DNA of 63,526 nt, filler included, from Craspedostauros australis (Eukaryota): the NCBI GenBank assembly GCA_030167865.1. It is 9 parts of 9 records of this genome, joined end to end, with 100 filler letters (N's around TTAATTAATTAA, not from the genome) between each part and the next. Parts side by side here need not be neighbours in the genome. Positions count along the whole stretch, not along the records: positions 11,402 to 41,086 come from JALAGF010003303.1; 8 more parts are not named here. One strand, given 5' to 3'. The notes under the pieces are model-generated. The model was not told the origin of the DNA and did not search any database. It worked only from the letters and a program-made list of their open reading frames with translations. This document shows, piece after piece, positions 4,206 through 63,526 of this stretch. Position 1 is the stretch's first letter, and each line of letters opens with the position of its first letter. The translations under genes were made by a program, and so were the position numbers.

Positions 4206-4305
4206 NNNNNNNNNNNNNNNNNNNNNNNNNNNNNNNNNNNNNNNNNNNNTTAATTAATTAANNNNNNNNNNNNNNNNNNNNNNNNNNNNNNNNNNNNNNN
4301 NNNNN
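4206..4305. other. artificial contig-join linker
   Basis: N44-TTAATTAATTAA-N44, a six-frame stop linker. Confidence 0.97.
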
Positions 4306-11301: not shown

Positions 11302-11401
11302 NNNNNNNNNNNNNNNNNNNNNNNNNNNNNNNNNNNNNNNNNNNNTTAATTAATTAANNNNNNNNNNNNNNNNNNNNNNNNNNNNNNNNNNNNNNNNNNN
11401 N
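11302..11401. other. artificial contig-join linker
   Basis: N44-TTAATTAATTAA-N44. Confidence 0.97.
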
Positions 11402-19800: not shown

Positions 19801-20535
19801 ATGGAGCAATGCAGCATCGAGGTTAGAGCACCATACATACCAATACGAGCAGCCCTCCTGCAATGATGGAGCACGGTCATTTTGTTTGCGTTCGTGTATG
19901 ACAGGCATGTCATGCGTGTAGGTCGTCCAAATCGATACTTCTGCGCACATTCGCCACAAGCAGCAGCAACTCAAGCAGCGTGATCACCGAGGATTGAACT
20001 AACCTTGTTCCTTGGTGTCGAACTTGAGTTCGCGGCGTTCGACGGTGGTGCCGTGTCCCATGGTGGCCTCCCAATCATCCTTGTCCAGCACATCCTCCGT
20101 GATCTCGTCGATGTTGTACTTGCGGTACTCGACCCAGCCATCGTCGATCTTTTCAGCGTCGTCGTCGTCGCTGTCGTCGTCACTGGAGTCGTCGTGGTCC
20201 TTCATGAGGCCCCACGTCTTGCGCGTCTTGAGGATGCGAACCACTACGCGATCGTCATCCTTGAGTTCCTTCGACAAGTCGATGACCTTGTCGGACGTGC
20301 CCTGCGAGCGCAGTAGTCCGCGACGCGAGCCCCGCGACGGAGACGGTGGGGCATTGAGCTCCTCGTTCTCCTTGGACACCATGGGTCCGTGGATCTCGAT
20401 CGTCACGCGGCGCTTCTTCTGCATGAGACGTCCCGAGAAGGCGCCCTTCACGGTGGGCACCAGACGACCTCCGACCATCTTCTTGGACGCCGGCGGCATC
20501 CGGATGTCCCAGGCGCGAGTGAGTTTCATCACCAT
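16864..20535 (-). CDS. multi-C2-domain transmembrane protein (MCTP-like), join(20004..20535,18879..19723,16864..18636)
   Basis: Two C2 domains (FELVSATDLPIGDKKTSDPYVV..SPIW; LYLEVLHCDGLDNKD..KSDPFAC) and C-terminal hydrophobic hairpins. Introns 20003-19724 (G|GTTAGT..AAACAG) and 18878-18637 (TTG|GTGAGT..GCGCAG) both preserve the frame. Confidence 0.85.
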
Positions 20536-21288
20536 GGTGGCAGGCAGATGGTTGTTGCTTGTTGCTTGTTGATGGAAGGACGCGAGGTGCGTGTCGCTTT
20601 CTTTCTCTCTTTGTGAAATGGGAACACTGCCTCCGGCTTTCCCGTTTCGTTTTTTGTGGAATCCTTTGTGCACAATCGCGGGAGAAGGAGAAAGCTGGAA
20701 ACAGGATCGGTGTGACAGTTGCACGCACCAGTTGGTGTGTTCGTCCGCTTTTGTGCACGTAATCGTCGATGGAGAACACGAACCGAGAAGCGTCCCAACA
20801 TGGGCTTTCTCGTTTCGGATGATGGATTGAGAACTCTTTCTCTTTTTGTGTCACACAAAGATACTCCAACTCCACGAGCCAAAATCTTCGTCGAGCCTGT
20901 CGGCCAATTCCTTGTCTGTGATGTGTCGCATGCTACACGAGGCACAAACGGGACTGGCAATCCGCAAGTTCCACTCCGTTGGGTCCAAGATCGCTGCAAG
21001 AGGCTAAGACTCTCTCTAGAGAGGATGATTTGTGGAGAATCCTCTGGTACGAGCAGACAACGTTGGCCAAGATGCACGATGGTGACAGCCATAACTCTCT
21101 TTATTATAACACTAGTACATGCACCATGTGGTAATGAAACAGAGAAGAGCAGTGTACAAGCATAACACTCGTAGAGTATTGAATTAGAATGGTGTTTACT
21201 TGGATTAGTACCTATTGCATTGGCACGATTTGTGCTTGAATGGCTCAGCATGACACCTTGCTGTGTCTCCAGTTGATGGTGTGGCGCA

Positions 21289-23303
21289 TTATCCGCAACG
21301 GCCAATGTCGAAGAACTCCTCTCCGCTCTCGAGCTTGCCATCGTACCACACTTCGCCGTCCACACGAACGGTGACGCCCTCGCTGGACAATCCCCTGCGA
21401 TGGAACACATCAAGGTACGTGCAACGATCGCTAGGAACGCAGGACTCCAGCTTGTACTGCTCCCAACGCTCATCGAATCCATCGTAGTCCCAGTAATCCG
21501 CGTCGCTTTCTCCGTCGTACATGAACACCTTCATCATGCGACGGCGTCTGTCCGTGTTCACCTCCATCTCGACCTTGATGCAGCTGTTGCTGCAGTCGCC
21601 GTTGATCGAGATCTGTTTGGAGCCACCAAAGTCGACGTCACCGGCTTCTTCGATGGTTCTGCCGTCGACCTTCACGGTGTATCCGCCGCCTTCGTAGAGT
21701 CTGCGAATGCAGGAGTTGTGTTCATTGCAAAAGATGATACGAGCATGAAACAGTATTGTATACACGAGGAGGTGGAGTTCATGTGAGATACGAGTAGTAG
21801 AGATGAAGAGAGTAATCACGTGAGCGAGTTCAAGGATCCGATTTCGACAGTCTCAGAATGATCACCAATTGCTGCTTGCATTTGGTTGTGCTGTTGAATA
21901 TTGAATCACAGTAACATCGACATCTGCGCCTTTCGTCTCTCTGCAATCACTTACCCATCACCTTCAGTGTCCAGCACCTTCAGCAAGTAGCAGCTGCTCT
22001 TGTCCAGACATTGCTTGATGTTGTATGTCTCGCCGCTTTCGTAGCTGCCAGCCTTCACTTCCTCCACCATGTTGCCATCGGCGGTGGTGAGCTGCCACCC
22101 AGTCTCCTCGCCCCAATCATCGGTGCGCATCTGGAATTCGAACAAGATCTCATTGCTTCCGCACGCACCGCCGTTGTCATCGCCTCCGCCATTATCATCG
22201 CCTCCATTGTCGTTGCCATCATCAAGGTTGCCGCAAAGCACGGATGGAACCTCACTCAAAGCGCAAGCATTGTCCTTGATCCACTGGTGCGCGCTGCTGA
22301 CGCGAGCATAAACACCAGGGTACTTTTGACGTGCGCAACCTGCGCCCCACGACACCACACCCACCTGTGTCGGCACTCCATTCTCCATCACCACCACTGG
22401 CCCGCCGCTATCGCCTTGGCACGAGTCCACTCCTCCCTGGTGATTTCCGTTCCTCACGAGGCCGGCGCAGAACTCTTCCGCGTCACTGATTCCATCATCG
22501 TATCGGGAAGGAGCGTTGCACCATGACGTCGCGATCTTGCTGATGTCGACTTCCTGGAGGATGTCGGCTGGTGATCCATCTTCGCTCGTGTCGCCGAACC
22601 CAATCACCGTCATTTGCTGGTTGTTGGCAGGCATGGCTGGGTCGCTGTTGAGGCGGACCATCGGCACGGCATCCCGTCCCGTGGTTGGAACCGGACGGTC
22701 GAGCTTGATGACCATGATGTCCTGCAGCTCGGACCTGGCGTATTCGGGATGCTCCGCCCACTTGTCGATCTTTCGCACGACGGGAGTCCTCCAGTTGTTC
22801 TTGTCTTCCCATGCCCACTCATCGTAGGGAGAGACAAGCACGGTCATGTCCTTGTTCTTACGTCCATCGGTGCAATGCGCTGCGGTGAGGAAGATGTCCG
22901 GTGCGATCATGGATCCGCCGCACCCGACCTCCCAGTGGACGAACCATGGGTACTCGCCGGGTTGCGCCTGCTGCCCTCCCACGATACGGGCTTCGTATCC
23001 GCGCGTTCCGACGGAGAGGGACGCGTCCTTGCCGCCGTTGCCTCGGAGCTGCTTGCTGTGGCGGAAGTTCGGGGTGTGCATCGGCGGGTGCTTGAGCATG
23101 CCTCTGTCGCCAGCACTCGTGCGAGCATGCTTGGTCTTGCCATGGGCCTTGTCCTTCGTTCTGGTGCGGCGTTGCACTTGGTGCTTGCGGCGTTCGTGAT
23201 GGAATGGGACTTCGACTTCAGCGTCTTTGTTAGCGGTGGCGGTGGATGCAACGCAAGCTGTTGCCACAGCCGACACGAGGAAGAGTGGGATCGAGATCTT
23301 CAT
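21289..23303 (-). CDS. secreted trypsin-like serine protease (S1A) with C-terminal repeated domains, join(21955..23303,21289..21700)
   Basis: Signal MKISIPLFLVSAVATACVA, activation site R|IVGG, LTAAHC, DIMVIKL, DSCQGDSGGP (S1 Asp) and VVSWG.GCA..YPGVYARVS. Intron 21954-21701 reads GG|GTAAGT..TTCGCAG. Confidence 0.93.
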
Positions 23304-24969
23304 TGTCGTTGTATCGTTTGCTTGTGTGCGTACCTGCGTGTGTGCGTGCGTGTGCTCTCTGTGTGTTTGGTTGCTTGGTGATTTGAATTGTGAGTTCAGC
23401 AAATTGTGAGCATGAGATGTGATGAACTCGAAGTGGGCAGAAGTGACTGAAGAGCACGTGGCGAAACAACACGAAGAAATGAAGCATGCCAGAGAGGCAC
23501 TGTGTGCTGTCCATTGGCACAACTTGTGGTCTTGGTTAGAATTCGGCATGGGCTAATTCGGTCAAACCACGTGATGCGATTGTTACTTGTGTCGTGTCTT
23601 TGTGTCCCTACGACACCGGATACCGGTAAGGCACATATGCACCGGGTCATCGATGGTATTGTTATTGACCTCAATACCACCGAAACTGCCAACTTTGTGA
23701 ATCGCGAAGTTGTTTTTGGATTGGTTTGGTCTTGCGGCATCGCGACTCGGAGAAGATGTTTGATTGCAAGGTGTTGCGGATCGCAGTTTGCGCGTCCTTG
23801 TCACCAGTATGAATATGGTTCGACCAGAGTACTATTGTAATATTATGTATGAGCATAGAGAGTACTAGTAGATCCAGTGTACGTGTAGTAGGATGGATAG
23901 CTCGCACACCATGTGTCCCCATGGGTACCACGAGAATGCAATGCAATGCACGAGTAGCTCGTCCAGGTATGGCAGAGGCGCGATTGGCGTTGTGACTCTT
24001 TGTGTGACGCGAGGGAGTGCTTGAACACGACCACGATGTTTGGACGAGGGATCGCTTTGGCTTCGAAGACGTCGGTGATAGCCGCTGCCATTCGAGACGG
24101 AAGGGCACCACGCATCGCATTCTCTCCAGCGAAGAGGCAGGGGTCCTGATTCATTGTTACGGGGCCTCGATGTAAAGGAATTGGAGGGAATTCAGAATCG
24201 GACATAGAATAGCAGTGCCCAACACGGAGATGAAGTGATTGCGATGAATACGCGCATGTCATCGACACTTGTCTGTGCCCAGGCAGATGATGCCTTTCGA
24301 GACTTGCACAGACAGCCACGGAGCAATACTCATACAGACAGACAGACTTACAAATCTCCCGACTGACAGCTGATCGCTCTGTGTTCATGTGGTACCATAC
24401 GCTCTGTTCCAGGAAATTCATCAACCAAAGATCCACCCCAAGCGACACGAAACAGTCCTGATGGCAGAAGGCATGGAATTGAAGGGAACGTAAGAATTAT
24501 GGGCACAGGGCACAGCGCACAGCGCACAGCGCACAAGCCCCTTCCATCTGTTGTGGTCTCTGCTCTGTTGCGTACGATTCTGCCGCTAGTGCCCCATCTA
24601 ACACCACAATAACCGGCAATGACGTCTGCGTCTCTTTGACGCATCGAGTCCTCAATTCGTTCCTCGCCAGTCGGAGCAACAAACACGATCCATGCCACAG
24701 CAACCACAACATTGGCGAGAGATTGTGTGAGTGGAGGAACTCTCCACGCTCCACATTCCCCCCAACAGCCGCATCATCCTGTGGTCACCTCGCGATGCCA
24801 CAATTCCATCGCTGTGGCCATCTCCACTCCATTAACCTGCCTACAGCCGAACCCATCTGGGTCACCCCCACCTCACTATTTTTCCTCAGCGAACAACATC
24901 GCTTCCTCTGCGAGTACGAGTGTATACGATCACATCCGAACCAATCTTGCATTCTCGACGTTCTTCAAG

Positions 24970-25437
24970 ATGGATCAAGAGCTCAACCGCCACGAAATCG
25001 TCGGCGGTGCATTCATGGAGGCCGAAGGCGATCCTGACACCGTTTGGGATGCCCGCAACAAATGGTTGTTTAGCACCGGTGCCACCATCAACACGTGCAT
25101 CAACGAGATTCCTCTTGTGGACGAGAAGCCGAGCGCCCTCACCGTCCGAACCGTGGTCGGTTCTGTCGATAATGTGCGCTCCGAAGGTCTCGTCACGCTC
25201 ACCGATTCCCTCACCGGCAACAGTCTCAAGATCACAGCTGTCAAGGCACCCGGATTCACCGAGAACATGATCAGCTTCAGCGCGCTCCACGGTATGGGCT
25301 ACAACCTTGACATTAACAACACCTGCGCGAAGATCCTTTATGGCGATTCCGGCGAGGTTGCATTCAAATTCATTAGAGAGGGTGATGGGCGATTCTACAT
25401 GACGACTACAGATGCGCACTTCCAGTCGTCGAACTGA
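24970..25437 (+). CDS. stand-alone Copia-type (Pol_BBD-like) protease-fold protein with catalytic D->S; candidate domesticated retrotransposon gene, 155 aa
   Basis: KWLFSTGATINTC..VKAPGFTENMISFSAL..GY..FIREGDGRFYM aligns by eye with the Copia protease in this window (KWLADTGATCHV..VVPGFAHNIISIPIF..GC..FHREPG..LYFL). It has its own ATG (AAGATGG) and stop codon. Confidence 0.72.
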   Translation: MDQELNRHEIVGGAFMEAEGDPDTVWDARNKWLFSTGATINTCINEIPLVDEKPSALTVRTVVGSVDNVRSEGLVTLTDSLTGNSLKITAVKAPGFTENMISFSALHGMGYNLDINNTCAKILYGDSGEVAFKFIREGDGRFYMTTTDAHFQSSN

Positions 25438-25743
25438 GCACGAGGCCTTCTTCATGAGGGATGCTGGCCATGCGGCAACCGGCGCTTCGGCGACAATGGC
25501 ACGATCATGCGCAACCCTGCAAGGAAATAGGAATCCGTTAACGAAGCCTCTCACGGATAGTCTAGTCTAGTCTACCTTGCTCTGCTCGACGTTGCCTTCC
25601 GAGATCCAATTGGCGCCAATGTTTCCACGAGCGAAGCAACGGAAGCGAGGCGCTAGTTACGAACACTTCGTGATGCGAGAGCATGATGTTGTTGTATGGT
25701 TTTATACGAGAATAGTATGATGCGTGCGTGTTCCATGACCTCA

Positions 25744-27993
25744 TCAGACCCCACGTCCTGCGGCGTTGTCGAGCAACGATGCCTGTTCTCGACCTTGCTG
25801 GTGTGTCTCCCCCTGAGGAGAGTTGGTTTGGCTGGGAGGTTCTATCAAGGCCGCGACAGTTTGGCGCATCCGGCGCGTCCAACGGCTGACGTACACCGTC
25901 ACGTACGGTCGGTACTTCTTTGCCCATGCGCCAACAATGGCGTACACGAAGAAAGCCACACCCGCAAAGAAAAATATCAAGATGAAGTCTTCGTCAGTCA
26001 AAGCGCAAAGGATGCCGGATGCCGCTAGAAGCATGCACATCACACCCATCGCAATGCCGACCTGCGTCATGTGATCCAACACGAGGCCTTGGATGCAGAT
26101 CATGATCGCGAATACGATCATCAATTCATCGAAGCACGTAGGGTATTCCACCGACAGGACACCGTACGAGGTCCAAAGCATCATGTCGCGATCCAGATAA
26201 GGGTGCTTGATGTTGTAGAGGAATAGATGAGCCAGCCACAGAAGCAAGTAGAGCGGAAACGCCCACTCTGAGCCATCCACGTCCTCCTGCAACATGGCGC
26301 CTAACAAAGTAGTCAGTGCGCAGCCGATTGGCACCAATGCTGCGGCCTTGGCCTCGGTTGATTTGAAGATCCACAGACCGCCCCAAGCAGACACGGCAAT
26401 TCCCGGCACCAGCAGCACCCAGGATATCCACTGGCTTCCCCCAGACTTCCGCTCCAGATCAAACCCGTAGATGTGCCTTCCACCAATGCGGATTTCGCTT
26501 GGAAAACTAGTATCGATGATGGTGCTGCCCTTGTACTCCAAGTTGATGTTAGGATGATCCGAAACGAAGACGGAGGCGTTGACGGAGGAACCGCATGACC
26601 TCTGCCGTTCGCAATCCCACGGGATTCCAAGATGGAGGAGCCACATCTGGCCTTGATGGAACTTCGAAATCAAGGGAAGCTTGGATACATCGGAGTGGCT
26701 CACATGGAGCGATCGGATGTCGAAAGCTGTGGTAGAGTTGTGAAAGTATCCAGCGTTGTTATTCTCGTTCTGTTGCGCATGTGTGGACGGGAGCAGATTC
26801 GCTTCGATCCCAGCTGCAAAGTAGCATGTCATGCGTACTTGTATCGGACCGGGCACGAAAGTATGAAAACCGTGCCGGTGATGGAAGCGTCGTCCTTTGG
26901 AAGTGCCATCGCTAGTTCCGGCGCGTTCCTCGTGGACGAAGCAAGCTGAAGTCACGTGGCTTCGCTCCTGCTGAGCCGTCGTCTCGTCCTCCCGTGAGTC
27001 CGAAGATGGCTCGTGCCCCTGAATCTTCTTCTTGGTTTCGCCAACGAACGCCACGGCTGCCTGGGGGTTGATGTACTCCTTGTGAATGTGGATGAAATTC
27101 GGTTCCGGTCCTTCTTGGAACAGGTAGCGATCTGCATCCTCGTTTTGATAGTAATAGCTCCCATCACCATTGTCCAGGCGGGCGATATCCTTCATGCTGT
27201 ACAAGGCGTTACCGTCTGCCATCGTGATTCTGAACGGGCCCGGCAGGTTTGGTTCGACCAGATGCCTGTTTGCCCACTCCTGCAGCCCATCCGGAAGACC
27301 TTTGAAGTTGGCGACGACTGCTGCTGGCTCGTTACGGGCCTTGTCCTCATCCCATTCACCGTAGCTGCTGTGCATGTCATCGATTCTCAAGGCGCTTCGC
27401 AGTTCCGATGGAAACATCGTGGCGATTGCGAAATTGGTGGTGACGGTTGCCAGCATTGCGCCGGAGAAGACGAATAACATGCATGCCAAGTTGATGAAGA
27501 GGGTGACCTTTGGAAGGCGCTGGCCTTGGCAGAAGAATGCGTCCAGTTTCCTGGAGACTTTGGCATGGGCATTGCTGTGATCGTTCGTGCGTGCATCATC
27601 CGCGCTGTTCGCTGTGTCTTCCGTTGCCTGGTCGATGGCATCAACCTGGCGTTGCAGCTCCGGCAAACAGCGATGAAAGAAGATGGCATTTGCGGTCTGC
27701 AGCATCATCAGCGCAACCATGGCGTAGGTATTGGATCGAACCGAACGCATGGAAGACGTCCCATATTCAAAGTGTTCGCTGACAACGCTCGTCTCGAGAA
27801 GGAAGAAGGGAATGTTGATTGCCACGATCCACCTGATGTGAATTGTGAAGAAGGCACGGAAGGCCGCCTTGGATGGGAGGAAGCTCGTGATCGGTGGCAC
27901 AGACTGATCGTCGATTCTGCCACCGCCATGGACCTCAAATGGCGTCACGTTGGATCCGGATGGCGTGGTCGGAGCTGCGTTTGGGATTGTCAT
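25744..27993 (-). CDS. hypothetical polytopic membrane protein (~749 aa)
   Basis: Long intact ORF from MTIPNAAP with ~3 N-terminal TMs, a ~300-aa soluble region and ~7 C-terminal hydrophobic segments. Confidence 0.7.
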   Translation of the reverse strand: MTIPNAAPTTPSGSNVTPFEVHGGGRIDDQSVPPITSFLPSKAAFRAFFTIHIRWIVAINIPFFLLETSVVSEHFEYGTSSMRSVRSNTYAMVALMMLQTANAIFFHRCLPELQRQVDAIDQATEDTANSADDARTNDHSNAHAKVSRKLDAFFCQGQRLPKVTLFINLACMLFVFSGAMLATVTTNFAIATMFPSELRSALRIDDMHSSYGEWDEDKARNEPAAVVANFKGLPDGLQEWANRHLVEPNLPGPFRITMADGNALYSMKDIARLDNGDGSYYYQNEDADRYLFQEGPEPNFIHIHKEYINPQAAVAFVGETKKKIQGHEPSSDSREDETTAQQERSHVTSACFVHEERAGTSDGTSKGRRFHHRHGFHTFVPGPIQVRMTCYFAAGIEANLLPSTHAQQNENNNAGYFHNSTTAFDIRSLHVSHSDVSKLPLISKFHQGQMWLLHLGIPWDCERQRSCGSSVNASVFVSDHPNINLEYKGSTIIDTSFPSEIRIGGRHIYGFDLERKSGGSQWISWVLLVPGIAVSAWGGLWIFKSTEAKAAALVPIGCALTTLLGAMLQEDVDGSEWAFPLYLLLWLAHLFLYNIKHPYLDRDMMLWTSYGVLSVEYPTCFDELMIVFAIMICIQGLVLDHMTQVGIAMGVMCMLLAASGILCALTDEDFILIFFFAGVAFFVYAIVGAWAKKYRPYVTVYVSRWTRRMRQTVAALIEPPSQTNSPQGETHQQGREQASLLDNAAGRGV

Positions 27994-28848
27994 CTTGATC
28001 GGCGAAGGGAACTGGAGGAGCGGTGAAGGATGCGTCGATTTGAGTACGTGACGAGAGGTATACTCTGTACGGGTGCGACTCTCGGGTGTGCGCAACCTGT
28101 ATTTGTGATCACAGTGGCTCGCACGGTAATTGGACGACACCCAATGTTGGGCAATAGAGAGGAGATCCCTCGCTCGTCCAGATTGTGCGCTCTTTGTTGC
28201 AGATGATTGTTGCTGGTGCGGATCTGTTGTGTTCGGAGGAAACTCGGTGAACAACAAGTTCCCACGATGAAAGATTTGAATCGTGTTTGAGATGAGTTCT
28301 TGTTGGAGTTCGGATGTGTTCAGAAACATCAGCACGTCTGCAAGCTCCACGTTTCAACTTGGACACGTTTTCGGAATCCCATATATGGTACTATGGAAGC
28401 GTATTTTAAATATACAAACGATATAGTATCATCTTGGTTCCTGTCAAATCACAAACAACAACAACAACGACGACAGACACAACAGGGAACACAACGCGAG
28501 AGCAGCGGAGACATCACCAAACACTCACAACCTCCCTGAAGTCCAGCCGCTTCTCTCAGAGTCCATTGCATGCAGGGGTGATCAAGCACCAGCTCCGCAA
28601 CCGCACCAGTGCAGTCTCTCCATTGATGCAACTCTCCGTGCAATCGAAAAACGGACAGTCGAAAGATTGCCGCTTCCAAAGTCCACGAATATCCGCGCTG
28701 TGCTTGTCTGCTCTGCGCAAAGATTTGCGTTGATTTGGGCCATCCGAAACGTGCGAACATCTCCGAGGACCTCTGAGTCTCTGCTGCTTGCTCTTCTCTC
28801 CCGCGACATCCTCGCAGCGCACAATCGCAGAAAACGAAGACAGCAAGC

Positions 28849-31800
28849 ATGACGGGATCAGGTTCTTCGTCGTCCGCAAACGGCGCTTCTGGTGGCGATG
28901 CCAGCGGATCGGCTTCGCTGGCGCAGTACCAGTCATTGTGGGATCTGCAGAGCAAGCAGCTGGATCGGTGGGTCAAGACAGTCCACGTCCTCTTTCCGAA
29001 AGGTACGACTGATCATCGGGCGCAGTTGGAATCGGATTCGATTCTCGTGCATCTGCGGGAATGATGGAGTCCTCTCCTCGCCTGCTCTGGTCTGGTCTGG
29101 TGTGCTCTTCTCCAAGTCTGTGGCATGATGTTATATCGTACTGCTACATGCTGCTACATACTCGCACTCTCCTCATTCTTGGAGATGATGCATGAGTGAA
29201 TGCGCGAATGCATTCATTCATGCATACGTTCATTCGTTCATCCAGAGGCGAACAAGCCTGTTGACATTTGATCTCAACAGATGACATTTGTACGACGGCG
29301 GCAGCACTCATGATGGTGATACAGCGTGCGAGTACACCACCAACATCACAATCGTACTACTCGAGTACCATCCTTGTGGATGTGTCCAGGCCGGCGCGAG
29401 AGTTGGTCGAAGCCGATGATGAATTCAGATACCGAAATGCAAACAGAGACTGTGCACTAATGGAAGGCAGTTCATGTGCGGATCATGCATCGGCCTTCCA
29501 TATCTCTGCTTGCATGTATGTATCCGTCTGATTTCTCACATCGTTGTGCAAGCGCCGAATCAATCCGACCCCTGTACTCGTACATTTCCGTTCTCTCTCT
29601 CTCTCTTTGTGCCCACGGCATTTGTTGCAACATGGATGTGCAGCCACGCCAAAGACCAAAGACAAGCTCTCAGACGCTGATCAGAAAAAGTTGGAGGTCT
29701 CTACAGTGCTTTGGAAGAACCTGCAGAAAGGCCTCACGGAGTTGCAGCCTGTGGAAGAACCCATCAAATCACAGGATGACGATGACAACGATGGCGATGA
29801 AAATAGTGCTGGACAGGAACAGGCTTCCAAACGTCAAAAGCTCAACGACAAGTCCTCCAAAAAAGCCAAGCAGAAGAACAAGGCGCCATCGGTGAAGATG
29901 GTCATCAAGGATCCCTTCAATCTCTGGCTTCACACGCTTCGGCGAGATCATGACAACGAGGATGGTGATAACTCAGATGATGACGACGACGAGGAAGAGA
30001 TGTCGGGTGACAATCTGAAGACAAGCATGGGTGGCAAGCTGTCGCAGCTGTCCATTTCCGGTATCCTCAACGGCATGGCGGCGACACCCAATGGCCTCGT
30101 CAAGAACAAGCGATTAACGCCGGTACAGCCAGAATTGAATGACAAGAGCATCGTTCCGTCGCTGGAAGAGCTGAAGGTCACGTTCGCTCAGCTCAAGGCC
30201 GTCGCGCGCACATTCTACAAGGCTCTGCAAACCAAAATGGAGAAGGATGTCCTCATCACAACGCCGCTACGGATCAAGCAGATGCTTGCGCCGGACCTTC
30301 TGCCGCATGAGTTCAAATCAGCCCGCAAACGTATCTACGATACGGTCGTGCTCGGGAAGGGATTGGCAGCACCGGCGGACGATGACGATATCCCCACGGC
30401 CACCGGCGGCACGGTGCATGACATAGAAAAGTTCAAGAAGTGCAAGACTTGCCAAAACAACGACCAATCTCTGTTCGTGCTGGACCGCAAGAATGGCGAT
30501 GTCATTTGCAGCAACTGCGGCACCGTCGCGTCCGAATCGCTGATGCACGAAGGGTCACAGTTCCGTAAATTCGAAGGCGAGGTCGATCGTAATCACCACG
30601 GGGATGCACAGAATCCACTGTACAGCAATGCCCACAACATGTCCACCACGCTGGGCGGTGTGCAGGTTACCACGGGTGCCGGAATCGGCGGCTTCGGTTC
30701 TCAGAAGAAGGGGCTCGAGGTGGTCCTGCGCAACGCCCATGCCTACACGGAGCTCAACATTTCTCAGTTCGGCAAGGGAGATAGACGAACGCGTACGGGA
30801 TACAAGGACAAGCAGAAGAAGGATGCCTTCGTCCAGATGGCGCACTGCGGTGATGCTCTGAGTCTGCACGAGGCGGTGGTCCAACGCGCCAAGGAGCTGT
30901 TTGCTGGATTCCGTGACGATCGTGAATTGGTGCAGCAGTTCAAGGGAATCATCGCAGCATGCCTGTGCGAGGCGTTCGATCAGCTCTCTTCCGCTGGACG
31001 TCGCATCCTGAAGCAGCAGGAGGAAGATGTCGCCTTGCAAGATGAATCCGACAGCAAAGGCAATCGATTCGCCACCAGCGCACGGGCACACCGTCGCAAC
31101 GAATTGCACCATGCCAACCTGGCAGGGCGGGGTGGTCTGCTGCTGGACTTCTCGGCCGTCGAGACCAAGGTGAAGAGCGGGAGCGGCAATGACCCGGCGG
31201 GCAAGGCAAACGCCGCGGCTGCGAATGGAGCAAGCTCAGCCGTGCAATCTAAGGTGGCCAACAAGCCATGCTCCAAGTGGGATCTCGATGATTGCCGCAC
31301 GTGGTTGCTGGAAGCATCCCGATCCATCGCGACGAGATGGATGGAAGAAAGAGCCAAGGCAGCAAAAGCGCAGGTCACGTCCTCCGTTCCCGATCCGGAT
31401 GCCGCCAAGATCCCGAAAGGTTCGAAGGAAGAGCTGGAGGGACGTCTCGTGGAACGAGCTATCGCGCTGTGCGATCTGCTGGAAGCCGAGTCGAAGCAGA
31501 AGGCCAATGCCTCTACAGGCGGCATGAACCGTGGCAGGCGTGCTGTTGTGACGCCACGCGTTCGCGACATGGCCAAGCTGGGCATCAAATGGCAGCACTC
31601 GCACGAGCGCGGTTCCGGTGGCAAGGGTGGGGTTGGCAACAGCGGTGCAGCCAAGAAGAACGCGATGGCTTCCGCTGCCTCGGCAAGGCGCGGCCCAACG
31701 GCTGGGCAGTTACTGATTCTAAAAACCTCCAAGAAGCTCGGCACGATGTTGAAGGACCCTGTCGCCGGGGATGCGATACACAAGGAACTGCGAACGCTAG

Positions 31801-41086: not shown

Positions 41087-41186
41087 NNNNNNNNNNNNNN
41101 NNNNNNNNNNNNNNNNNNNNNNNNNNNNNNTTAATTAATTAANNNNNNNNNNNNNNNNNNNNNNNNNNNNNNNNNNNNNNNNNNNN
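41087..41186. other. artificial contig-join linker
   Basis: N44-TTAATTAATTAA-N44. Confidence 0.97.
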
Positions 41187-44100
41187 GCCTCAGTTGGGTG
41201 CTCCAGATGGGATGCAAGATCTCTGATTGCATTCGCACACTCTGGTCCAACCTTCTTCATCATCCACAAGAGCTTGCCCACAATGGAACGATATCCCTTT
41301 CGATTCACTTCTGGATCTCCTTCCTTCGCTTTCTCAAGCGTGGTGGACGGGTATGCAGGTGTTTCAAAGAATCTGACTTGCTTGCCATGATGCGATTTGA
41401 ACTCCGCAATCATCTGGCCTACAAAGTCATCCATGTTCACCTCCAGGCACTTCCCATCCGAGTCTGTCAACTTTCGATACCAGACTCCGAGATGCTTCGT
41501 GAGTTCACCGAGATCCGTGATGTTGAATTTCTTTGCAATCTCCATCTTCACCCATTCCACGATATCCTCTTCTCCTCCGATGGCTGCATCATCGACGTAC
41601 ACAATGACCAAAGCTGCCACCCGTCCGTTGCGTTTGAGAGTGAACAGACATGGGTCTGCGAGGCTCTTGTCGAATCCGATCTGCACCAGAGCAATGGTAA
41701 ACGTCTTCATCCATGCTCTTGGTGCTTGCACCGTCCCGTACACTGCTTTCAGCAGTCTCGCCACGTGTTCAGATCTGTATCTGGAGTTGTCCTTGCCTTC
41801 GAGATCTCCGTCCAGGAACCCTTCCGGAATCTCCACGTACACTTCCTCTTCGATGTGCGCGTTCAGGAAAGCTGCCTCCACGTCCAATGCTTCGATCACC
41901 CATCCAGGATTCGCCAGGCACACTGCGAGCATCGTCCGGATCGTCGTGTCACTCGCCACAGGTGAGAAAGACTCCGTGAAATCAACTCCAGGAATCTGCT
42001 CATAGCCCTTCACCACCAATCTGGCTTTGTATCGAGTCGACCCATCCTGTTCCAGCTTCTTCACAAAGATCCATCTGGATTGCAAAGCGATCCTTCCATC
42101 CCCCATCCTCTTGCGATCCATGATGGCCAGGCAATCGCGAATCCGAAAATTCTCGACCTCCTTCATCGCTGCCTTCTTCCACTCCTCGCAGTCGGGTCTG
42201 GACAGCGCTTCGCCAAGGGTCTTTGGCAGTCCAGGGTCGGAAGTCAAGGATGCATTGAACACAGCCAGGATCTTTCCATGTTTGAATCTGGTGTTGGGTT
42301 TGCCATCATCGATGTCGTCGACTGTCATTGGCTGCCAGGTCGCCAGCCTTGCGCGCTCTCGATCCAGCTTTGTGCGTGGTTCTGCCTTGGCTCGTGGTGG
42401 AATCACAGGTTGCTCATCCAAATCGACGGAGATCATGTCATCATCTTCCTTGGCTTCACTCTCATCGCTAACCAGCGGTCCTCCAGCATCGAGTAAGATG
42501 TCATACATGTTGTCCATGTCGCCATCACCGACCTCTTTATCGATGTCAAAGGTCTTGCCTTGGATGACTTCTTCGTCGTCGTCTGAGGGAATAACGTGGG
42601 GTATACCTTTGATCGACACCTCCTTGGCCCGTTTGGCGCCGCCCGTCACTCTGATCCCATCCATCTCACGCAAGATCGATTTCGGTTTTGTCTTCGACTT
42701 CACCGGAGATTCCAATGTCACCGCTTTCGTCGCGCCCTTCGTCGCATCGATGATATCCACTCCATCGGTCAGGTTCGATCCATGCCACTCCATCCAGTTT
42801 ACATCTCTGGACAAGATCACCTTCTTTGTGTCCAGTTTGTACATCCTGTAGGTGTCGCCGGAATGGTTGTCGGCGTATCCGATCATCACTGCCTTGGTTG
42901 CTTTCGGACTCATCTTCGGTTGCTTCGTAGGGTCCTTGACGTACGCAATCCTTGCCCACTCTGTCAGGTTCTGGTAAAGCCTGGGAGTCTGCCCATAGAA
43001 GATTTCATCTGGACATCCCTTGCCTTTCTCCACCACAGTCAGGTTGTTGAGGCGGGTTGCTGTGTGAACGGCCTCCGCCCACAGCATTCCCTGTGATTCT
43101 GACGTCATCTTCGCATCCAGCATCAAAGCCAGCGCCGAGTCTCGAATCGTAACAAAACCTCGCTCCACGACTCCATTCATCTGTGGGGTGTGGGGTGCGG
43201 TGTATTCCAGCTCGATCCCATGCTCGTCACAAATCCTCATCAGCTTGCTCTGGTTCTCTCCAGCGTTGTCGCACCGAATTGCATTCACCTTCAGTCCCGT
43301 TCCGTCTAGCTTCACTACCAACTCTTTCACCTTCGCGGCCAGCTGGCTCTTTGCCTTGAGGAAATAACTCCACTTCTTTCTGGAGAACTCATCCACCACT
43401 AGCAACCAATAGTTGCTTCCCTTCGCCGTCTTTTTGTACGGTCCGGAGATGTCCAGAAAGAGGCGATCAGCCACCTTGGAGGCCTTCTCCATCGCCATCT
43501 TCCTTACTCCTTTGGCCTTGGCTTTTGCCATGGCGCATGCTTCGCAGGACTTCCACACTCCAGTGAGCTTCCATCCGGCTGCCGCTGCCGTTAGCTTGGT
43601 GTACCGCTCGTTGGGATGCCCCAAGATACGATGCGCGCGATTGATGTCCATCACCGTCTTCCTCGCACTATCTCCTTTCTTCTCCGCCTGCATCACCGCT
43701 CTGGCTAGTTTTGGTTGCGGCTTGCACTTCAGGAAGTAGAGATCTGCTTCTCCATGTCCTGGTTCCCTGTGGAAGATCATTTGGTTCTTCATGTCTGAAT
43801 GGCCGATCTCGATGGTATCCCGCCTGCCCCGTATCTCACATCCTTTCTCCAGGAATATGGGAATACTGATGATGTTGTGGGCGAATCCTGGCACCACATA
43901 CACCGTCTTCAGGACGAACTTGGTTCCTTCCACCGTCTCACCATGGAATTCTCCCACATGAGTTGGCGTCACCACCGTCCTGTCGCCAACCTGCACCGTC
44001 GTGTCTCTTCCTGCTGTCCTCAAGTTTCGGATATGGTCTGGCTTCCACACGACATGGCATGTCGCTCCAGTATCTGCCAGCCACTTATCCTCATCTCCGN

Positions 44101-44818
44101 CATCACGACTGTTTCCGCAGTTGCGGCAGGTCAAGTCCGACATGCCGACAAACATCCCAGACTCTCCATCGCTCCTGTTGTTGCCATCAGACTTGTTCTT
44201 CTCCGGGCAATCTTTTGCCTTGTGACCTTTCTTCTTGCATCGGAAGCACTTGATCCTCTGCAAGTAGCTGTCGTCGTTGTTGACCTGTCCAGCCCAGCAG
44301 TCAGCTGCCTTGTGGCCGTATTTGCCACACTTGGTACATGTTCCTTTGTACCTGCCAAACCTCCTGCCGACCTGGGATGTGAATGCTTGGTTCGCTGACC
44401 CAACTCCATCACCTCCCTCATCGCCAACCTTGCGTTTCCAGAATCTGATGAGAGACTTCCGCAGAGTGTCCCACTTCAGGTCACCGTCGTTGAGTTCCCT
44501 GTCCAATGTGGTCTTGAGTTCGCTGTAGATCGATTCCGGAAGATTCACCATGACGTGTGCGATGCAATCGTCGTCGCTCTTGGTCACTCCGAAATCCTTC
44601 AGCTCCTTCACGATGCGGTTGATGCGCATCATCCACTGACTTGGGTCCTCATCTGGCGGGTTCAGTGTACAAGTGGTGAACTCGTTCAGCTTCGATACCT
44701 TATCCGCCTTGTCTCTTGGGGCGTATCTGTCCTGAAGTGCGGTCAACGCTGCCACTGCGTCACCCTTCGGTTGGTGGTCAGTCTTGCAGTCTCGCACGAT
44801 GCTCCTTGCCAGCCCATC
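41187..44818 (-). mobile_element. Ty1/Copia LTR retrotransposon internal region (gag-PR-IN-RT), open frame, both ends truncated
   Basis: Two CCHC knuckles (CTKCGKYGHKAADC, CFRCKKKGHKAKDC), protease WLADTGA, GAG-pre-integrase HRILGH..CEAC, integrase D(ISGP)..IRCDNAGE..PQMNGVVER, RT YKARLVVKGY..LDVEAAFL..VYGTVQAP..VYVDD. The PR-IN-RT order identifies it as Copia. Confidence 0.96.
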
Positions 44819-44918
44819 NNNNNNNNNNNNNNNNNNNNNNNNNNNNNNNNNNNNNNNNNNNNTTAATTAATTAANNNNNNNNNNNNNNNNNNNNNNNNNN
44901 NNNNNNNNNNNNNNNNNN
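44819..44918. other. artificial contig-join linker
   Basis: N44-TTAATTAATTAA-N44. Confidence 0.97.
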
Positions 44919-58946: not shown

Positions 58947-59500
58947 GTCTGTTGGCCGAGACGTTGGATTGCTGGTCACCGGCATACGGGTCGGCCTTCT
59001 TGTTGGACTGCTCGTTGGATTGCTCGTCGGTGCGCTTGTTGGTCGAGAAGTTGGTCGACTAGTCGGTGCACTCGTTGGCTGGGATGTCGGTGCATCCGTA
59101 GGTGCGCTCGTTGGCTGGGACGTCGGTGCATCCGTAGGTGCGCTCGTTGGGGTACTGGTCGGATTGCTCGTTGGCTGGGTGGTTGGCAAATCTGTAGGTG
59201 CGCTCGTGGGTTGTTCTATTGGATTGGGCGTCTCTGGGGTGGGCACGCTCGTTGGCTGGGTGGTTGGCACATTTGTCGGCAGGGCGCTTGGCGAGACCGT
59301 CGGCGCTGGTGTTGGAAGGGCAGTTGGAATGTTGGTCGGATTACTCGTTGGCTGGGTAGTTGGTACATCCGTGGGTGCCGATGTTGGAGCGGAAGTTGGA
59401 ACGCTGGTTGGTTGGGCGGTCGGGACCGCCGTCGGAGCCGACGATGCCAGCACGGTGGGGTTGCTGGTCGGCCTGGAAGTTGGCACGTCCGTCGGTGGCA
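58947..59500 (-). repeat. 12-bp-unit tandem repeat encoding (PTxx)n, copy 1
   Basis: PTSAPTDAPTSQPTSAPTSRPTSRPT... Confidence 0.9.
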
Positions 59501-62034
59501 GGATGTCGATGATCTCATCCGTCAGTCCGCAGATGCTCTCCACGCCCATCTCCGTGAGCTTGCTGTTGAGAGCAGCGTAGAGCTCCAGCAGGAAGGGGCC
59601 TCTGTCAGGAATCGCGTCCACGGCACAGAAGCACGTGTCTTCGGTTTGCATGCGACGATGGCGGGGACGGCCAGCAAGGTCCACGTTGAACTCGCGATCC
59701 AGATCCAGCTCGGTCTGGAGCTGCTGCAGGGATCGTCTTCCGGCACCTCCGGTGGCGGGGGACGTCGCAGAAGGATCTTCGTCCACCAACGGCGTGCCAT
59801 CACCGCATCCACGGCATCTTCCGTTGGTCTCCATGGTGGTGTCACCGAGAACGCATCCGTCCGAATTCGGCGTTTGTCCGGCGGGGATGTTGATGGTGGT
59901 GATCGCGCTTCCCACGAGGACGCGTCGGAAGAGCATGTCGCAGTACTGAGCCGCCAGCTCGTTGTACACCATCTCGAAGATGGTGGAGAAGCTCTCCAGG
60001 TCGGAGGCGGACACATCTGGCACCACCAGCAGCATGAGCTGCAGGTCTTCCGGCACGAAGTCATTCGTCTCCGCCTCGCAATCTTGCGTCTGGACCAGCT
60101 GGACGTCATCGAGGGTGATGTCGGGCGGGAGGTCGACTTCGTCGTCGATCTGGTCGCGGAAGTCGTCNGCGTTGAAGANGATGATCTGGTTGGTTCCGAC
60201 ACCGCAGTAGCACTGAGATTCATCTTCTCGGACTCCTTCGGTGTCNATATCCGNCTGTAGGCGTCGGAGGTTGGCAACTCCATCATACTCGTGCATGAAA
60301 TCTGGGATCTTGCTGGATCGGATGTTGGAGCGGATGCCAGAGTCGGCGCGGTCGTTCGTCTCGCCCGCAGCCGCAGTCACATCCTCAGTCGCCATGCTCG
60401 GGACAGTACGGGCATGGATGCCCATGCCAGCATCTGCGTGGAAATCCGCGCTGCCGACTCTGCCGAAGCTGTCTTCACCGCTCGCGAAGAGATGACGCTG
60501 CTTTCTCACAGTGACGAAGGAGGTTTCTGTGATGTCATTTCCAAAGCCAAAGTACGAGGAGCAGAATATGCAGGTTCCGAGCCCGGTGACCAGTATGGAG
60601 AGCGTTGGGTTGTTGGGATCGTATTGACTGAAATCGACGGATGTTTGCAGCTTTCTATGACCGTGACCGTGGCCGTTGGCATGGATGGCGGCATCAAAGT
60701 ACGGCTGGCTGCGATCGAAATCAAGGTCATCCCTGCCCTCGCTGTCCAGGTGCATGGTTTTCGAATCCTCATCCATGAGGAATCGATTTGAATTGAAGGT
60801 GAACGTTTCTCCTTCGTTGTTGATCTGGACGCTGACGATCGCGATAACGGTGGTGAGGTCACGGAAGCTGGGGTCGCAATCGCCTTGGCTGTCACTGTCG
60901 GTACTGTTGTAGAGATTGAGGAAGACCTGGACGACGGCATTGACCAGATCTTCAACCTCTTGGAAAGAGAGGGATGTTTGGCCCGGGGTTGGGTTGCCAA
61001 AGTTGGTGTCCGTGAACTGAACGTAGAGTTCCGTGGTGAAGGGTTCACGAGGTGGACATTCATTGACGCCAACGATGCAGGCCAATCCGAGGTCCTGCAC
61101 GTTGATGTTGTACACCGCCATGAGCTCTGGCTCGGATGGCGATCGTTCCGCGATGGGGGCGATGTCGCAGTAGCAGGTCTCGGTGAGCTCGTTTGTCCTC
61201 CTTGGCTTTCTTGAGTCACCGCTGCCGCCGCCGCGCGTTGCGGAGTGGGCGCCCAGGGCCCTGCCTGCAGAGCTGACAGAGGTGGTGGTGGTATCGTAGG
61301 GATGTGTGACGCTGTTGGATGTGCAGGCACGATTGTCGTTGATGTGGAGCCTGGCATCCGCGGCTGTTCGTTTGAGCACGTTGGTGCTATCATCACTATC
61401 ACTATCACCACGAGTATGACTATCGCTGTCGCTGCCGTTGACATCACCGTTGACATCACCATCGACATCACCATGTGCATTAATGCTGCTTCGAAGATGG
61501 TCGTTGAGCTGTTCGTTGATGACGTCACCCATGTCATGTCCAATATCACTGGTACCATCATAGTCACCACCATCGTGAGCACCACCATCGTGAACACCAC
61601 GATTGGAGGCATGATCGGTGTATTGCATCTTGCGAGAACGCCTACCACCTGACATGGTAGCGAGCAAGGGCCCCTCGGTATAGAGCGTGGTGACAGCCGG
61701 ATCGCATCCACGACATCGCAGGGTGACGATGGCCTCGATACTGACGGCGATAGATCCGCTGATCTCCTCCGGCACGACCGTGGATCCGTCCGTGACGATG
61801 CCCGTGAAGGTGACGTTGTTGATGACGCGGAAGAAGGGATCGCAGTATCTCTCGGCGACAAGGTCGTTGTAGGTGGTGGCGAAGGTGGCCTCGAGCTCTG
61901 GGACGCGAGGGTCGTCGAGGGAGAGAGGTGAAACCTGCTGGTCGTCCTCGCAGACCAGGAGCTCGATGGCGATGCGAATGTCGAACACCTGCTCGTCATC
62001 GACGGTGTCGGAGCAGTCGATCTCCTGCACCTCC
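58947..62034 (-). CDS. internal fragment of large modular extracellular mucin-like protein (three Cys modules, R-x-L/M-type motifs, PT repeats)
   Basis: >1000-aa frame open at both contig ends. Repeated YN..CD(P/M).FR...C(R/I).C modules, C(Y/F)C motifs, RRLQ/RKLQ/RRMQ and (PTxx)n. Confidence 0.85.
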
Positions 62035-62134
62035 NNNNNNNNNNNNNNNNNNNNNNNNNNNNNNNNNNNNNNNNNNNNTTAATTAATTAANNNNNNNNNN
62101 NNNNNNNNNNNNNNNNNNNNNNNNNNNNNNNNNN
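62035..62134. other. artificial contig-join linker
   Basis: N44-TTAATTAATTAA-N44. Confidence 0.97.
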
Positions 62135-63526
62135 GTCTGTTGGCCGAGACGTTGGATTGCTGGTCACCGGCATACGGGTCGGCCTTCTTGTTGGACTGCT
62201 CGTTGGATTGCTCGTCGGTGCGCTTGTTGGTCGAGAAGTTGGTCGACTAGTCGGTGCACTCGTTGGCTGGGATGTCGGTGCATCCGTAGGTGCGCTCGTT
62301 GGCTGGGACGTCGGTGCATCCGTAGGTGCGCTCGTTGGGGTACTGGTCGGATTGCTCGTTGGCTGGGTGGTTGGCAAATCTGTAGGTGCGCTCGTGGGTT
62401 GTTCTATTGGATTGGGCGTCTCTGGGGTGGGCACGCTCGTTGGCTGGGTGGTTGGCACATTTGTCGGCAGGGCGCTTGGCGAGACCGTCGGCGCTGGTGT
62501 TGGAAGGGCAGTTGGAATGTTGGTCGGATTACTCGTTGGCTGGGTAGTTGGTACATCCGTGGGTGCCGATGTTGGAGCGGAAGTTGGAACGCTGGTTGGT
62601 TGGGCGGTCGGGACCGCCGTCGGAGCCGACGATGCCAGCACGGTGGGGTTGCTGGTCGGCCTGGAAGTTGGCACGTCCGTCGGTGGCAGGATGTCGATGA
62701 TCTCATCCGTCAGTCCGCAGATGCTCTCCACGCCCATCTCCGTGAGCTTGCTGTTGAGAGCAGCGTAGAGCTCCAGCAGGAAGGGGCCTCTGTCAGGAAT
62801 CGCGTCCACGGCACAGAAGCACGTGTCTTCGGTTTGCATGCGACGATGGCGGGGACGGCCAGCAAGGTCCACGTTGAACTCGCGATCCAGATCCAGCTCG
62901 GTCTGGAGCTGCTGCAGGGATCGTCTTCCGGCACCTCCGGTGGCGGGGGACGTCGCAGAAGGATCTTCGTCCACCAACGGCGTGCCATCACCGCATCCAC
63001 GGCATCTTCCGTTGGTCTCCATGGTGGTGTCACCGAGAACGCATCCGTCCGAATTCGGCGTTTGTCCGGCGGGGATGTTGATGGTGGTGATCGCGCTTCC
63101 CACGAGGACGCGTCGGAAGAGCATGTCGCAGTACTGAGCCGCCAGCTCGTTGTACACCATCTCGAAGATGGTGGAGAAGCTCTCCAGGTCGGAGGCGGAC
63201 ACATCTGGCACCACCAGCAGCATGAGCTGCAGGTCTTCCGGCACGAAGTCATTCGTCTCCGCCTCGCAATCTTGCGTCTGGACCAGCTGGACGTCATCGA
63301 GGGTGATGTCGGGCGGGAGGTCGACTTCGTCGTCGATCTGGTCGCGGAAGTCGTCAGCGTTGAAGATGATGATCTGGTTGGTTCCGACACCGCAGTAGCA
63401 CTGAGATTCATCTTCTCGGACTCCTTCGGTGTCAATATCCGCCTGTAGGCGTCGGAGGTTGGCAACTCCATCATACTCGTGCATGAAATCTGGGATCTTG
63501 CTGGATCGGATGTTGGAGCGGATGCC
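62135..63526 (-). CDS. second copy (allele/paralogue/redundant contig) of the mucin-like fragment, matching 58947-60338
   Basis: Same starting base, offset 3188; translations identical except at the four N positions of copy 1. Confidence 0.85.

Follow-up and report, generated by a model that had tools for sequence, protein, structure and literature searches.

Does an open reading frame (ORF) of 155 codons in the genome of the diatom Craspedostauros australis represent a retrotransposon protease kept by its host, or is it retrotransposon debris? The ORF lies in the window, by which we mean the whole 63,526-nucleotide stretch of assembly GCA_030167865.1 analyzed here. The original prediction described it as a stand-alone gene derived from a Copia protease whose catalytic Asp has been replaced by Ser, and its clean frame was found as placed, on the plus strand from an ATG at 24970 to a TGA at 25435-25437. 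Sequence comparison makes its homology to the protease domains of Ty1/Copia elements secure, structure prediction indicates a retropepsin fold, and the ORF stands alone among host genes. We tentatively favor the reading that it has been kept as a noncatalytic pseudo-protease acting as a binding protein, which we regard as possible rather than probable.

We established the homology by several sequence searches. No Pfam family matched the 155 amino acids (aa) at E ≤ 10, placing the ORF below detection by the Copia protease family PF22936 (Pol_BBD). An exhaustive phmmer search with the ORF against 1.84 billion representatives returned three matches at E ≤ 1e-3 (E 8.9e-7 to 6.7e-5). Two of these, P0002 and P0003, score above the Pol_BBD cutoff of 27 bits (39.4 and 33.7 bits), while P0001 falls below it (23.4 bits) and extends into pre-integrase-like sequence. 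A pattern-based scan of metagenome contigs, queried with the ORF and two of the phmmer relatives, turned up L001, a complete Copia polyprotein of 1167 aa with Pol_BBD (43.3 bits), an integrase SH3 domain, and RVT_2 (5.6e-29). ORF residues 29-147 align with this polyprotein without a gap over 119 aa, at 29% identity and 50% positives (BLASTP, E=1e-13). A hidden Markov model (HMM) built from six relatives, with the ORF itself left out, matched ORF residues 24-147 with 79.7 bits (E=9e-24 among 936 six-frame window ORFs).

The kinship had originally been drawn by eye from the Copia ORF at 41187-44818 of the window (Pol_BBD, 44.7 bits). The motifs do correspond, as KWLFSTGAT, APGFTENMIS, and FIRE..FYM can each be lined up with a motif of Copia proteases, but direct similarity to this element is slight: 24% identity over 76 aa (BLASTP against its N-terminal 411 aa, E=0.046). 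Homology is shown instead via other Copia lineages. The 41187-44818 ORF occupies its own contig and is not a neighbor of the 155-aa ORF; that contig is cut at both ends, so the missing long terminal repeats (LTRs) there are uninformative.

For comparison across lineages, we used an 18-row alignment (A5) that includes Copia protease domains from 13 loci, namely, L001 and 12 of 43 Copia-bearing contigs. The ORF shares with Copia proteases the motifs W-x-x-[D]-T/S-G-A-T, PGF-x-N-x-I-S, and G-x-Y-L/M, and in the tree its grouping with P0001, L001, P0003, and the window Copia is weak (support 83/84). We derive the ORF from a diatom lineage of Ty1/Copia elements akin to L001, P0001, and P0003. A sequence search of the PDB with profile A3 gave only unrelated chains (best E=0.57). 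As a separate observation, the 43 contigs (L002-L044) that encode Ty1/Copia polyproteins come from assemblies labeled as bacteria or archaea, both metagenome-assembled genomes and isolates, and are most likely eukaryotic contamination of these prokaryote-labeled assemblies.

The fold was predicted with AlphaFold2 (AF2) from the 18-row alignment. The model has a mean predicted local distance difference test score (pLDDT) of 84.2 and a predicted template modeling score of 0.73; the 10-residue blocks average 83-97 over residues 31-150 and 46-65 over residues 1-30, falling below 50 at residues 12-23. It replaced an earlier model from 7 sequences, which reached a pLDDT of 45.3 and had no Foldseek match at E ≤ 1e-3. 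The best 50 Foldseek matches in the PDB were all retropepsins (XMRV, HIV, SIV, MPMV, and EIAV proteases and Rickettsia APRc), headed by XMRV PR (E=5.7e-4, probability 1.00, TMt 0.55). VIA-align ranked the RVP domains of DDI1/Ddi1 first (PDB structures 3s8i, 4z2z, and 4rgh; Z 8.5, 8.4, and 8.3; root mean square deviation [rmsd] 3.1-5.1 over 104-110 residues), followed by XMRV protease (Z 7.4). Among the VIA matches listed, 50 of 50 were retropepsins or DDI1 RVP domains (Z 6.4-8.5); a Z below 8 may reflect a common arrangement, and here a single fold family fills the whole list. The structural match to the protease fold is therefore present in both searches, and on the strength of this model the ORF is predicted to have a retropepsin fold.

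These results bear on one alternative, a chance ORF with chance similarity. It could appeal to the empty Pfam search and to a 189-aa antisense ORF that spans the whole frame. However, the HMM score of 79.7 bits, the BLASTP match at E=1e-13, and the confident retropepsin model leave this explanation effectively refuted. The antisense ORF itself scores only 0.05-0.10 bits/codon, and this low score makes it most likely a by-product of codon bias in the sense frame.

In retropepsins, each of the two subunits must contribute one Asp to catalysis. In alignment A5, the catalytic column is covered by 16 relatives; 15 of them carry Asp there and P0003 carries Asn, and the ORF has Ser35, in agreement with the predicted replacement of Asp by Ser. 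The codon, AGC, lies two base changes from GAY, and the loop F34-S35-T36-G37 offers no substitute Asp. With Ser35 in place of the catalytic Asp, the protein cannot be a conventional aspartic protease. The ORF retains the core positions W32, G73, P94, N99, S102, and G140. An enzyme that remains active through Ser35, through another residue, or as a heterodimer with an Asp-bearing partner would fit the preserved fold and Thr-Gly loop, but the need for an Asp from each subunit, its conservation in nearly all relatives, and the loop composition make such activity very improbable.

We then asked whether other parts of an element surround the domain. In a Copia element, the protease lies between the gag zinc knuckle and the integrase, inside the LTRs, and the ORF does not have this placement. 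A tblastn search of the whole window with the window Copia polyprotein found no Copia relic near the ORF, and tblastn with the window Copia, the L001 polyprotein, and P0001-P0004 found only the protease at E < 0.2 in 20000-30000. A Pfam search of 38 six-frame ORFs of ≥35 aa in 23550-25760 found no gag, zf-CCHC, or reverse transcriptase in the flanks. The sole retroelement-type match there is a weak one to rve (E=0.043, 38 queries) in a 52-aa open stretch at 24208-24363 on the plus strand. We treated this match as noise and not as an integrase remnant, since an upstream integrase would be in the wrong order and the best tblastn value with integrase-bearing proteins was E=13. Downstream, the spacer of only 306 bp leaves no room for an integrase. 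No LTR-like direct or terminal repeats were found around the ORF, and its region occurs only once in the 63-kb window, with no repeated DNA. Save for the weak rve match, the tblastn, Pfam, and repeat searches of the flanks agree with the earlier statement that gag knuckle, integrase, and LTR are lacking. The host-gene flanks also hold, with the trypsin gene (Pfam 2.3e-45) on one side and the 861-aa ORF on the other.

The ORF might still be carried by a transposable element (TE), as a nonautonomous or rearranged retroelement or repeat unit with a dead protease domain and many genomic copies. Other retroelement pieces do lie in the window, namely, the Copia at 41187-44818 and a gag/protease-like ORF at 55668-56858 that has "DNQ" at the motif. 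The nearest ESM Atlas neighbors of the ORF are two clusters of diatom hypothetical proteins of 178 and 182 aa (131 and 312 members, score 0.95, no Pfam), and their sizes could reflect repeated copies, although this is a lead only. Set against these points are the lack of terminal or direct repeats, the single copy in the 63-kb window, and the ordinary host genes on either side, and we consider a TE-borne ORF quite improbable. In a control search of the ESM Atlas, the L001 protease gave no usable match, which indicates that the diatom clusters are not simply generic Copia protease; they might form a wider family of about 180 aa with the ORF.

Codon usage was scored with a table from 11 host ORFs (6571 codons). 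In its own frame, the ORF scores 0.324±0.054 bits/codon and exceeds all 408 intergenic 155-codon windows (maximum, 0.234), with the other five frames of the region at ≤0.104 bits/codon. The sliding score runs at 0.21-0.48 across the ORF and is negative past the stop. Upstream, it lies between -0.56 and -0.02 except in one window, 24886-24969, right before the ATG, which scores 0.18; coding-type codon usage perhaps starts about 28 codons upstream of the ATG. The nonhomologous leader (residues 1-28) scores higher than all 1068 intergenic 28-codon windows. Host windows average 0.271±0.084 and TE windows 0.240±0.064 bits/codon, so the description of the codons as host-like is true but is not diagnostic. 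The start codon sits in the context ttcaagATGg, with A at -3 and G at +4, and the upstream stretch 24640-24969, which may be a 5' untranslated region, contains one out-of-frame ATG, at 24795.

The same data can be read as those of an inert relic: a short Copia fragment, or a piece of Copia cDNA captured in break repair, from an unsampled and possibly protease-dead lineage, with a fortuitous ATG and stop. It would have inserted between the two host genes so recently that its frame has not yet closed. Capture of Ty1 cDNA fragments at breaks is known in yeast, and TE fragments are mostly without function. A relic would account for the codon scores, as the codon usage of TEs resembles that of the host, and the window before the ATG would allow an old coding fragment to reach slightly beyond it. 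Going upstream, an in-frame ATG is met before a stop with a chance of ~0.26 (from stop frequency), and a stop 8 codons past the end of homology is unremarkable. However, the leader scores above every intergenic window despite having no Copia homology, and the rest of the element could not be traced within 1.4 kb upstream and 0.3 kb downstream.

The probability of a relic depends on its age. Given the composition of the flanks, the chance that 155 codons stay open is ~9e-4, and together with the absence of indels relative to L001, this makes a long-decayed neutral relic unlikely; stops or indels would be expected in an old fragment, and none are present. A recent relic is plausible. It has to accommodate two base changes in the catalytic codon, which are improbable for a young, otherwise undamaged fragment. 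The retention of conserved positions, lower in the ORF than in any other of the 18 sequences, fits a relic, but this low retention (23 of 35) speaks against youth as well. We regard a relic as a serious possibility, ranked second.

Divergence does not decide between a relic and a retained pseudo-protease. The best identity of the ORF to its relatives is 30-33%, and each of these relatives is a Copia protease domain, located either in the complete element L001 or in a short fragment. Copia protease domains are themselves mutually divergent (median pairwise identity, 21%), and the divergence of the ORF lies inside the range between those sampled, as a relic would predict. For three other such domains, including that of the long open Copia ORF of the window, the best matches reach only 26-27%. 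The terminal branch of the ORF, at 2.08, is the longest in the tree, with branches of 1.59-1.89 for these three, and we dropped the long branch as a sign of accelerated evolution on account of their comparable branches and lower identities.

If the ORF has been kept as a pseudo-protease, it would encode a small cytosolic protein in which the beta-barrel of retropepsins and their Thr-Gly "fireman's grip" loop are preserved. In favor of this reading stand the homology and predicted fold, the undamaged frame, the coding-type codon usage that includes the leader and stops with the ORF, the two-step change of the catalytic codon, the retained core positions, and the solitary place in a gene-dense host contig. 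Such a protein would act by binding and not by cutting, as a dimer whose cleft could hold extended peptides. The most plausible partners would be Gag-Pol or the protease of related Copia elements, and an effect on Copia could come about if the protein poisons protease subunits or masks cleavage sites. Translation, dimerization, retention by selection, and an anti-Copia role are what we infer within this reading. One complex prediction gave a homodimer score of 0.38 versus 0.27 for the control, which counts neither way on binding. Even within the pseudo-protease reading, an anti-Copia role is unlikely. The full proposal, that a host gene restrains Copia retrotransposition by forming inactive heterodimers with the Gag-Pol protease or by occupying cleavage sites, is improbable.

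Several observations weigh against the pseudo-protease reading. No orthologue or close relative appeared in any protein or contig search, the C. australis genome and its close relatives being outside the searched collections; a relic would likewise leave no orthologue in these searches. The exact protein is absent from a collection of 15 billion proteins. Searches for proteins of similar length with the ORF alone and for longer proteins found none, a protein search with profile A1 returned only P0002 and a Malus Copia fragment, and scans of metagenome contigs (ORF alone), viral contigs, and genome contigs (profile A2) were empty. The best identity of 30% and the long branch may merely reflect a young fragment of an unsampled lineage, and 10% of TE windows reach the codon score of the ORF, so that host and TE are not separated. 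In the conserved-group columns, the ORF keeps 23 of 35 (66%), fewer than any of the other sequences (69-88%). Five of its 12 changes at conserved columns fall in residues 34-43, around the active site, and we dropped this clustering as an argument (Fisher p=0.13). Loss of the Asp is also possible in a Copia copy with no sign of host use, as exemplified by P0003, a 156-aa metagenome Copia fragment that is 64% identical to the L001 protease (L001:132-533), has Asn for the catalytic Asp, and is a second D-less copy within the nearest lineage of the ORF.

Two further points concern expression and dose. One public run (X1, kind unrecorded) contains a 3440-nt contig that is identical to 24734-28173 without gaps and bridges the ORF and the 861-aa gene; the contig carries no strand, start, or level, and the run may be the window's own source. 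A transcript starting at 24734 would place the out-of-frame ATG at 24795 ahead of the ORF start, again to the disadvantage of a translated pseudo-protease. For subunit poisoning, the relevant precedent is HIV-1: according to a preprint (10.64898/2026.02.09.704886), infectivity stays above 80% when about half of the protease is inactive and collapses only above 75%. Given this tolerance of ~50% inactive subunits, the dead subunit would have to be in large excess, and poisoning would be an inefficient and demanding mechanism.

A TE-derived host ORF is a known kind of thing, and comparison with known systems shows where this one would differ. It is like the Copia protease in sequence, motifs, and fold but has its own ATG and stop, lies outside gag-pol, carries Ser for Asp, and is below Pfam detection. 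In diatoms, Copia elements, which include the CoDi lineages, are a major, stress-activated genome component, according to Maumus et al. 2009 (PMC2806351). The RVP domains of DDI1, the best VIA matches, show the cellular retropepsin fold outside retroelements, but the ORF shares only 7-9% identity with them in structural alignments. Membership in the DDI1 type does not fit an ORF with kinship to Copia, no Pfam match at E ≤ 10, and, at 155 aa, room for one domain. DDI1 keeps its catalytic Asp and has ubiquitin-like and UBA domains.

ASPRV1 and PEG10 are conserved across mammals and come from Ty3/Gypsy-like or retrovirus-like elements. They resemble the ORF as host-encoded, retroelement-derived protease domains, and the ORF differs by its Copia source and the loss of Asp. 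ASPRV1/SASPase processes itself, and the PEG10 protease domain carries Asp-Ser-Gly, according to two sources (PMC11402058, PMC7212762). The same poison-dimer idea underlies mixtures of wild-type HIV-1 protease with inactive subunits engineered by D25N, but these are man-made and not the product of a natural host gene. In the viral library (BFVD), the best match to the model is a 153-aa bracovirus "putative aspartyl protease" (Q8QL56; Foldseek E=8.5e-5, TM 0.48/0.48). It is likewise a short, solitary retropepsin-like ORF, but it belongs to an insect-associated virus and shares only 13% identity, with an rmsd of 14.1 over 150 columns.

The restriction factors Ty1 p22 and Fv1 are gag-derived, and in such systems a fragment of the element's own protein hampers its assembly or maturation. 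Both derive from capsid/gag, whereas the ORF derives from a protease, and a restriction role for it would be by analogy. Exapted retroelement genes come mainly from gag, env, and integrase and are known mainly from animals and plants. Literature searches turned up no host genome with a Copia-derived protease that stands alone and lacks the Asp.

The window consists of nine contigs chained by N44-TTAATTAATTAA-N44 linkers, so features on either side of a linker have no physical linkage. The contig at 11402-41086, which carries the 155-aa ORF, is gene-dense host DNA with genes for MFS transporters, two C2-domain proteins, the trypsin, a TFIIB-type zinc-ribbon protein, CNOT11, a pseudouridine synthase, and a GT43 glycosyltransferase. 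Coordinates of the ORF, its parts, and its surroundings are given in Table 1.

Table 1. Positions of the 155-codon ORF, its parts, neighboring genes, and contig linkers in the window
Feature	Position	Strand	Basis or remark
Solitary Copia-type retropepsin domain ORF, 155 codons plus TGA stop (25435-25437)	24970-25437	+	ORF listing, codon score
N-terminal leader, residues 1-28, no Copia homology	24970-25053	+	Codon score 0.442±0.12
Protease (Pol_BBD/retropepsin-like) domain, residues 29-147	25054-25410	+	BLASTP, HMM, AF2, Foldseek, VIA
Ser35 codon AGC at catalytic Asp position; Thr36-Gly37 of D(T/S)G loop kept	25072-25074	+	Alignment A5
Upstream in-frame stretch, open for 110 codons, scores noncoding (-0.025)	24640-24969	+	Translation, codon score
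Antisense ATG ORF, 189 aa, spans whole 155-aa ORF	24886-25455	-	Codon score 0.05-0.10 bits/codon
Trypsin-family serine protease gene, divergent upstream neighbor	21951-23549	-	Pfam Trypsin 2.3e-45
861-aa ORF, convergent downstream neighbor, hydrophobic C-terminal segments	25744-28329	-	No Pfam family
Spacer, 306 bp, from ORF stop to stop codon of convergent 861-aa gene	25438-25743	.	No Pfam/tblastn match; codon score negative
Linkers	4206-4305, 11302-11401, 41087-41186, 44819-44918, 52657-52756, 55032-55131, 58847-58946, 62035-62134		

Other features of the window were recorded in passing. On the ORF contig, a short run of GCACA-type repeats lies at ~24503-24537, in intergenic DNA upstream of the 155-aa ORF. 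The ends of this 29.7-kb contig (11402-14799 and 37666-41086) form an inverted duplication of ~3.4 kb that is 88-99% complementary (99% in the outer 1046 nt) and copies an MFS transporter gene and its neighbor; this may be a genuine inverted segmental duplication or a fold-back produced in assembly. The retroelement-like ORF at 55668-56858 (plus strand) encodes a gag zinc knuckle (zf-CCHC_5, 6.1e-6) and, after it, a protease-like stretch, which scores 25 bits to the Copia protease profile and reads L-L-D-N-Q-S-T at the D-S/T-G site. The next ORF, 661 aa at 56862-58844 (plus strand), has no Pfam family at 1e-4. An ORF at 51677-52654 (plus strand) with an endonuclease/exonuclease/phosphatase domain (6.7e-6) runs off its contig end and could be a non-LTR retroelement endonuclease or a host gene. 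The contigs at 58947-62034 and 62135-63526 have identical first 20 bases, both encode PT disordered repeats (8e-20 and 2.2e-22), and are probably allelic or duplicated.

What the ORF means for diatom biology depends on which explanation is right. If it is a young relic, the finding is ordinary, and it warns that intact TE fragments can pass as host-like since their codon usage is alike. If the ORF is translated and under selection, it would be a natural pseudo-protease with a retropepsin fold in a diatom, and protease-based self-restriction becomes a testable idea. Should it in fact restrain Copia, this would make it the first natural restriction factor derived from a retroelement protease and not from a capsid.

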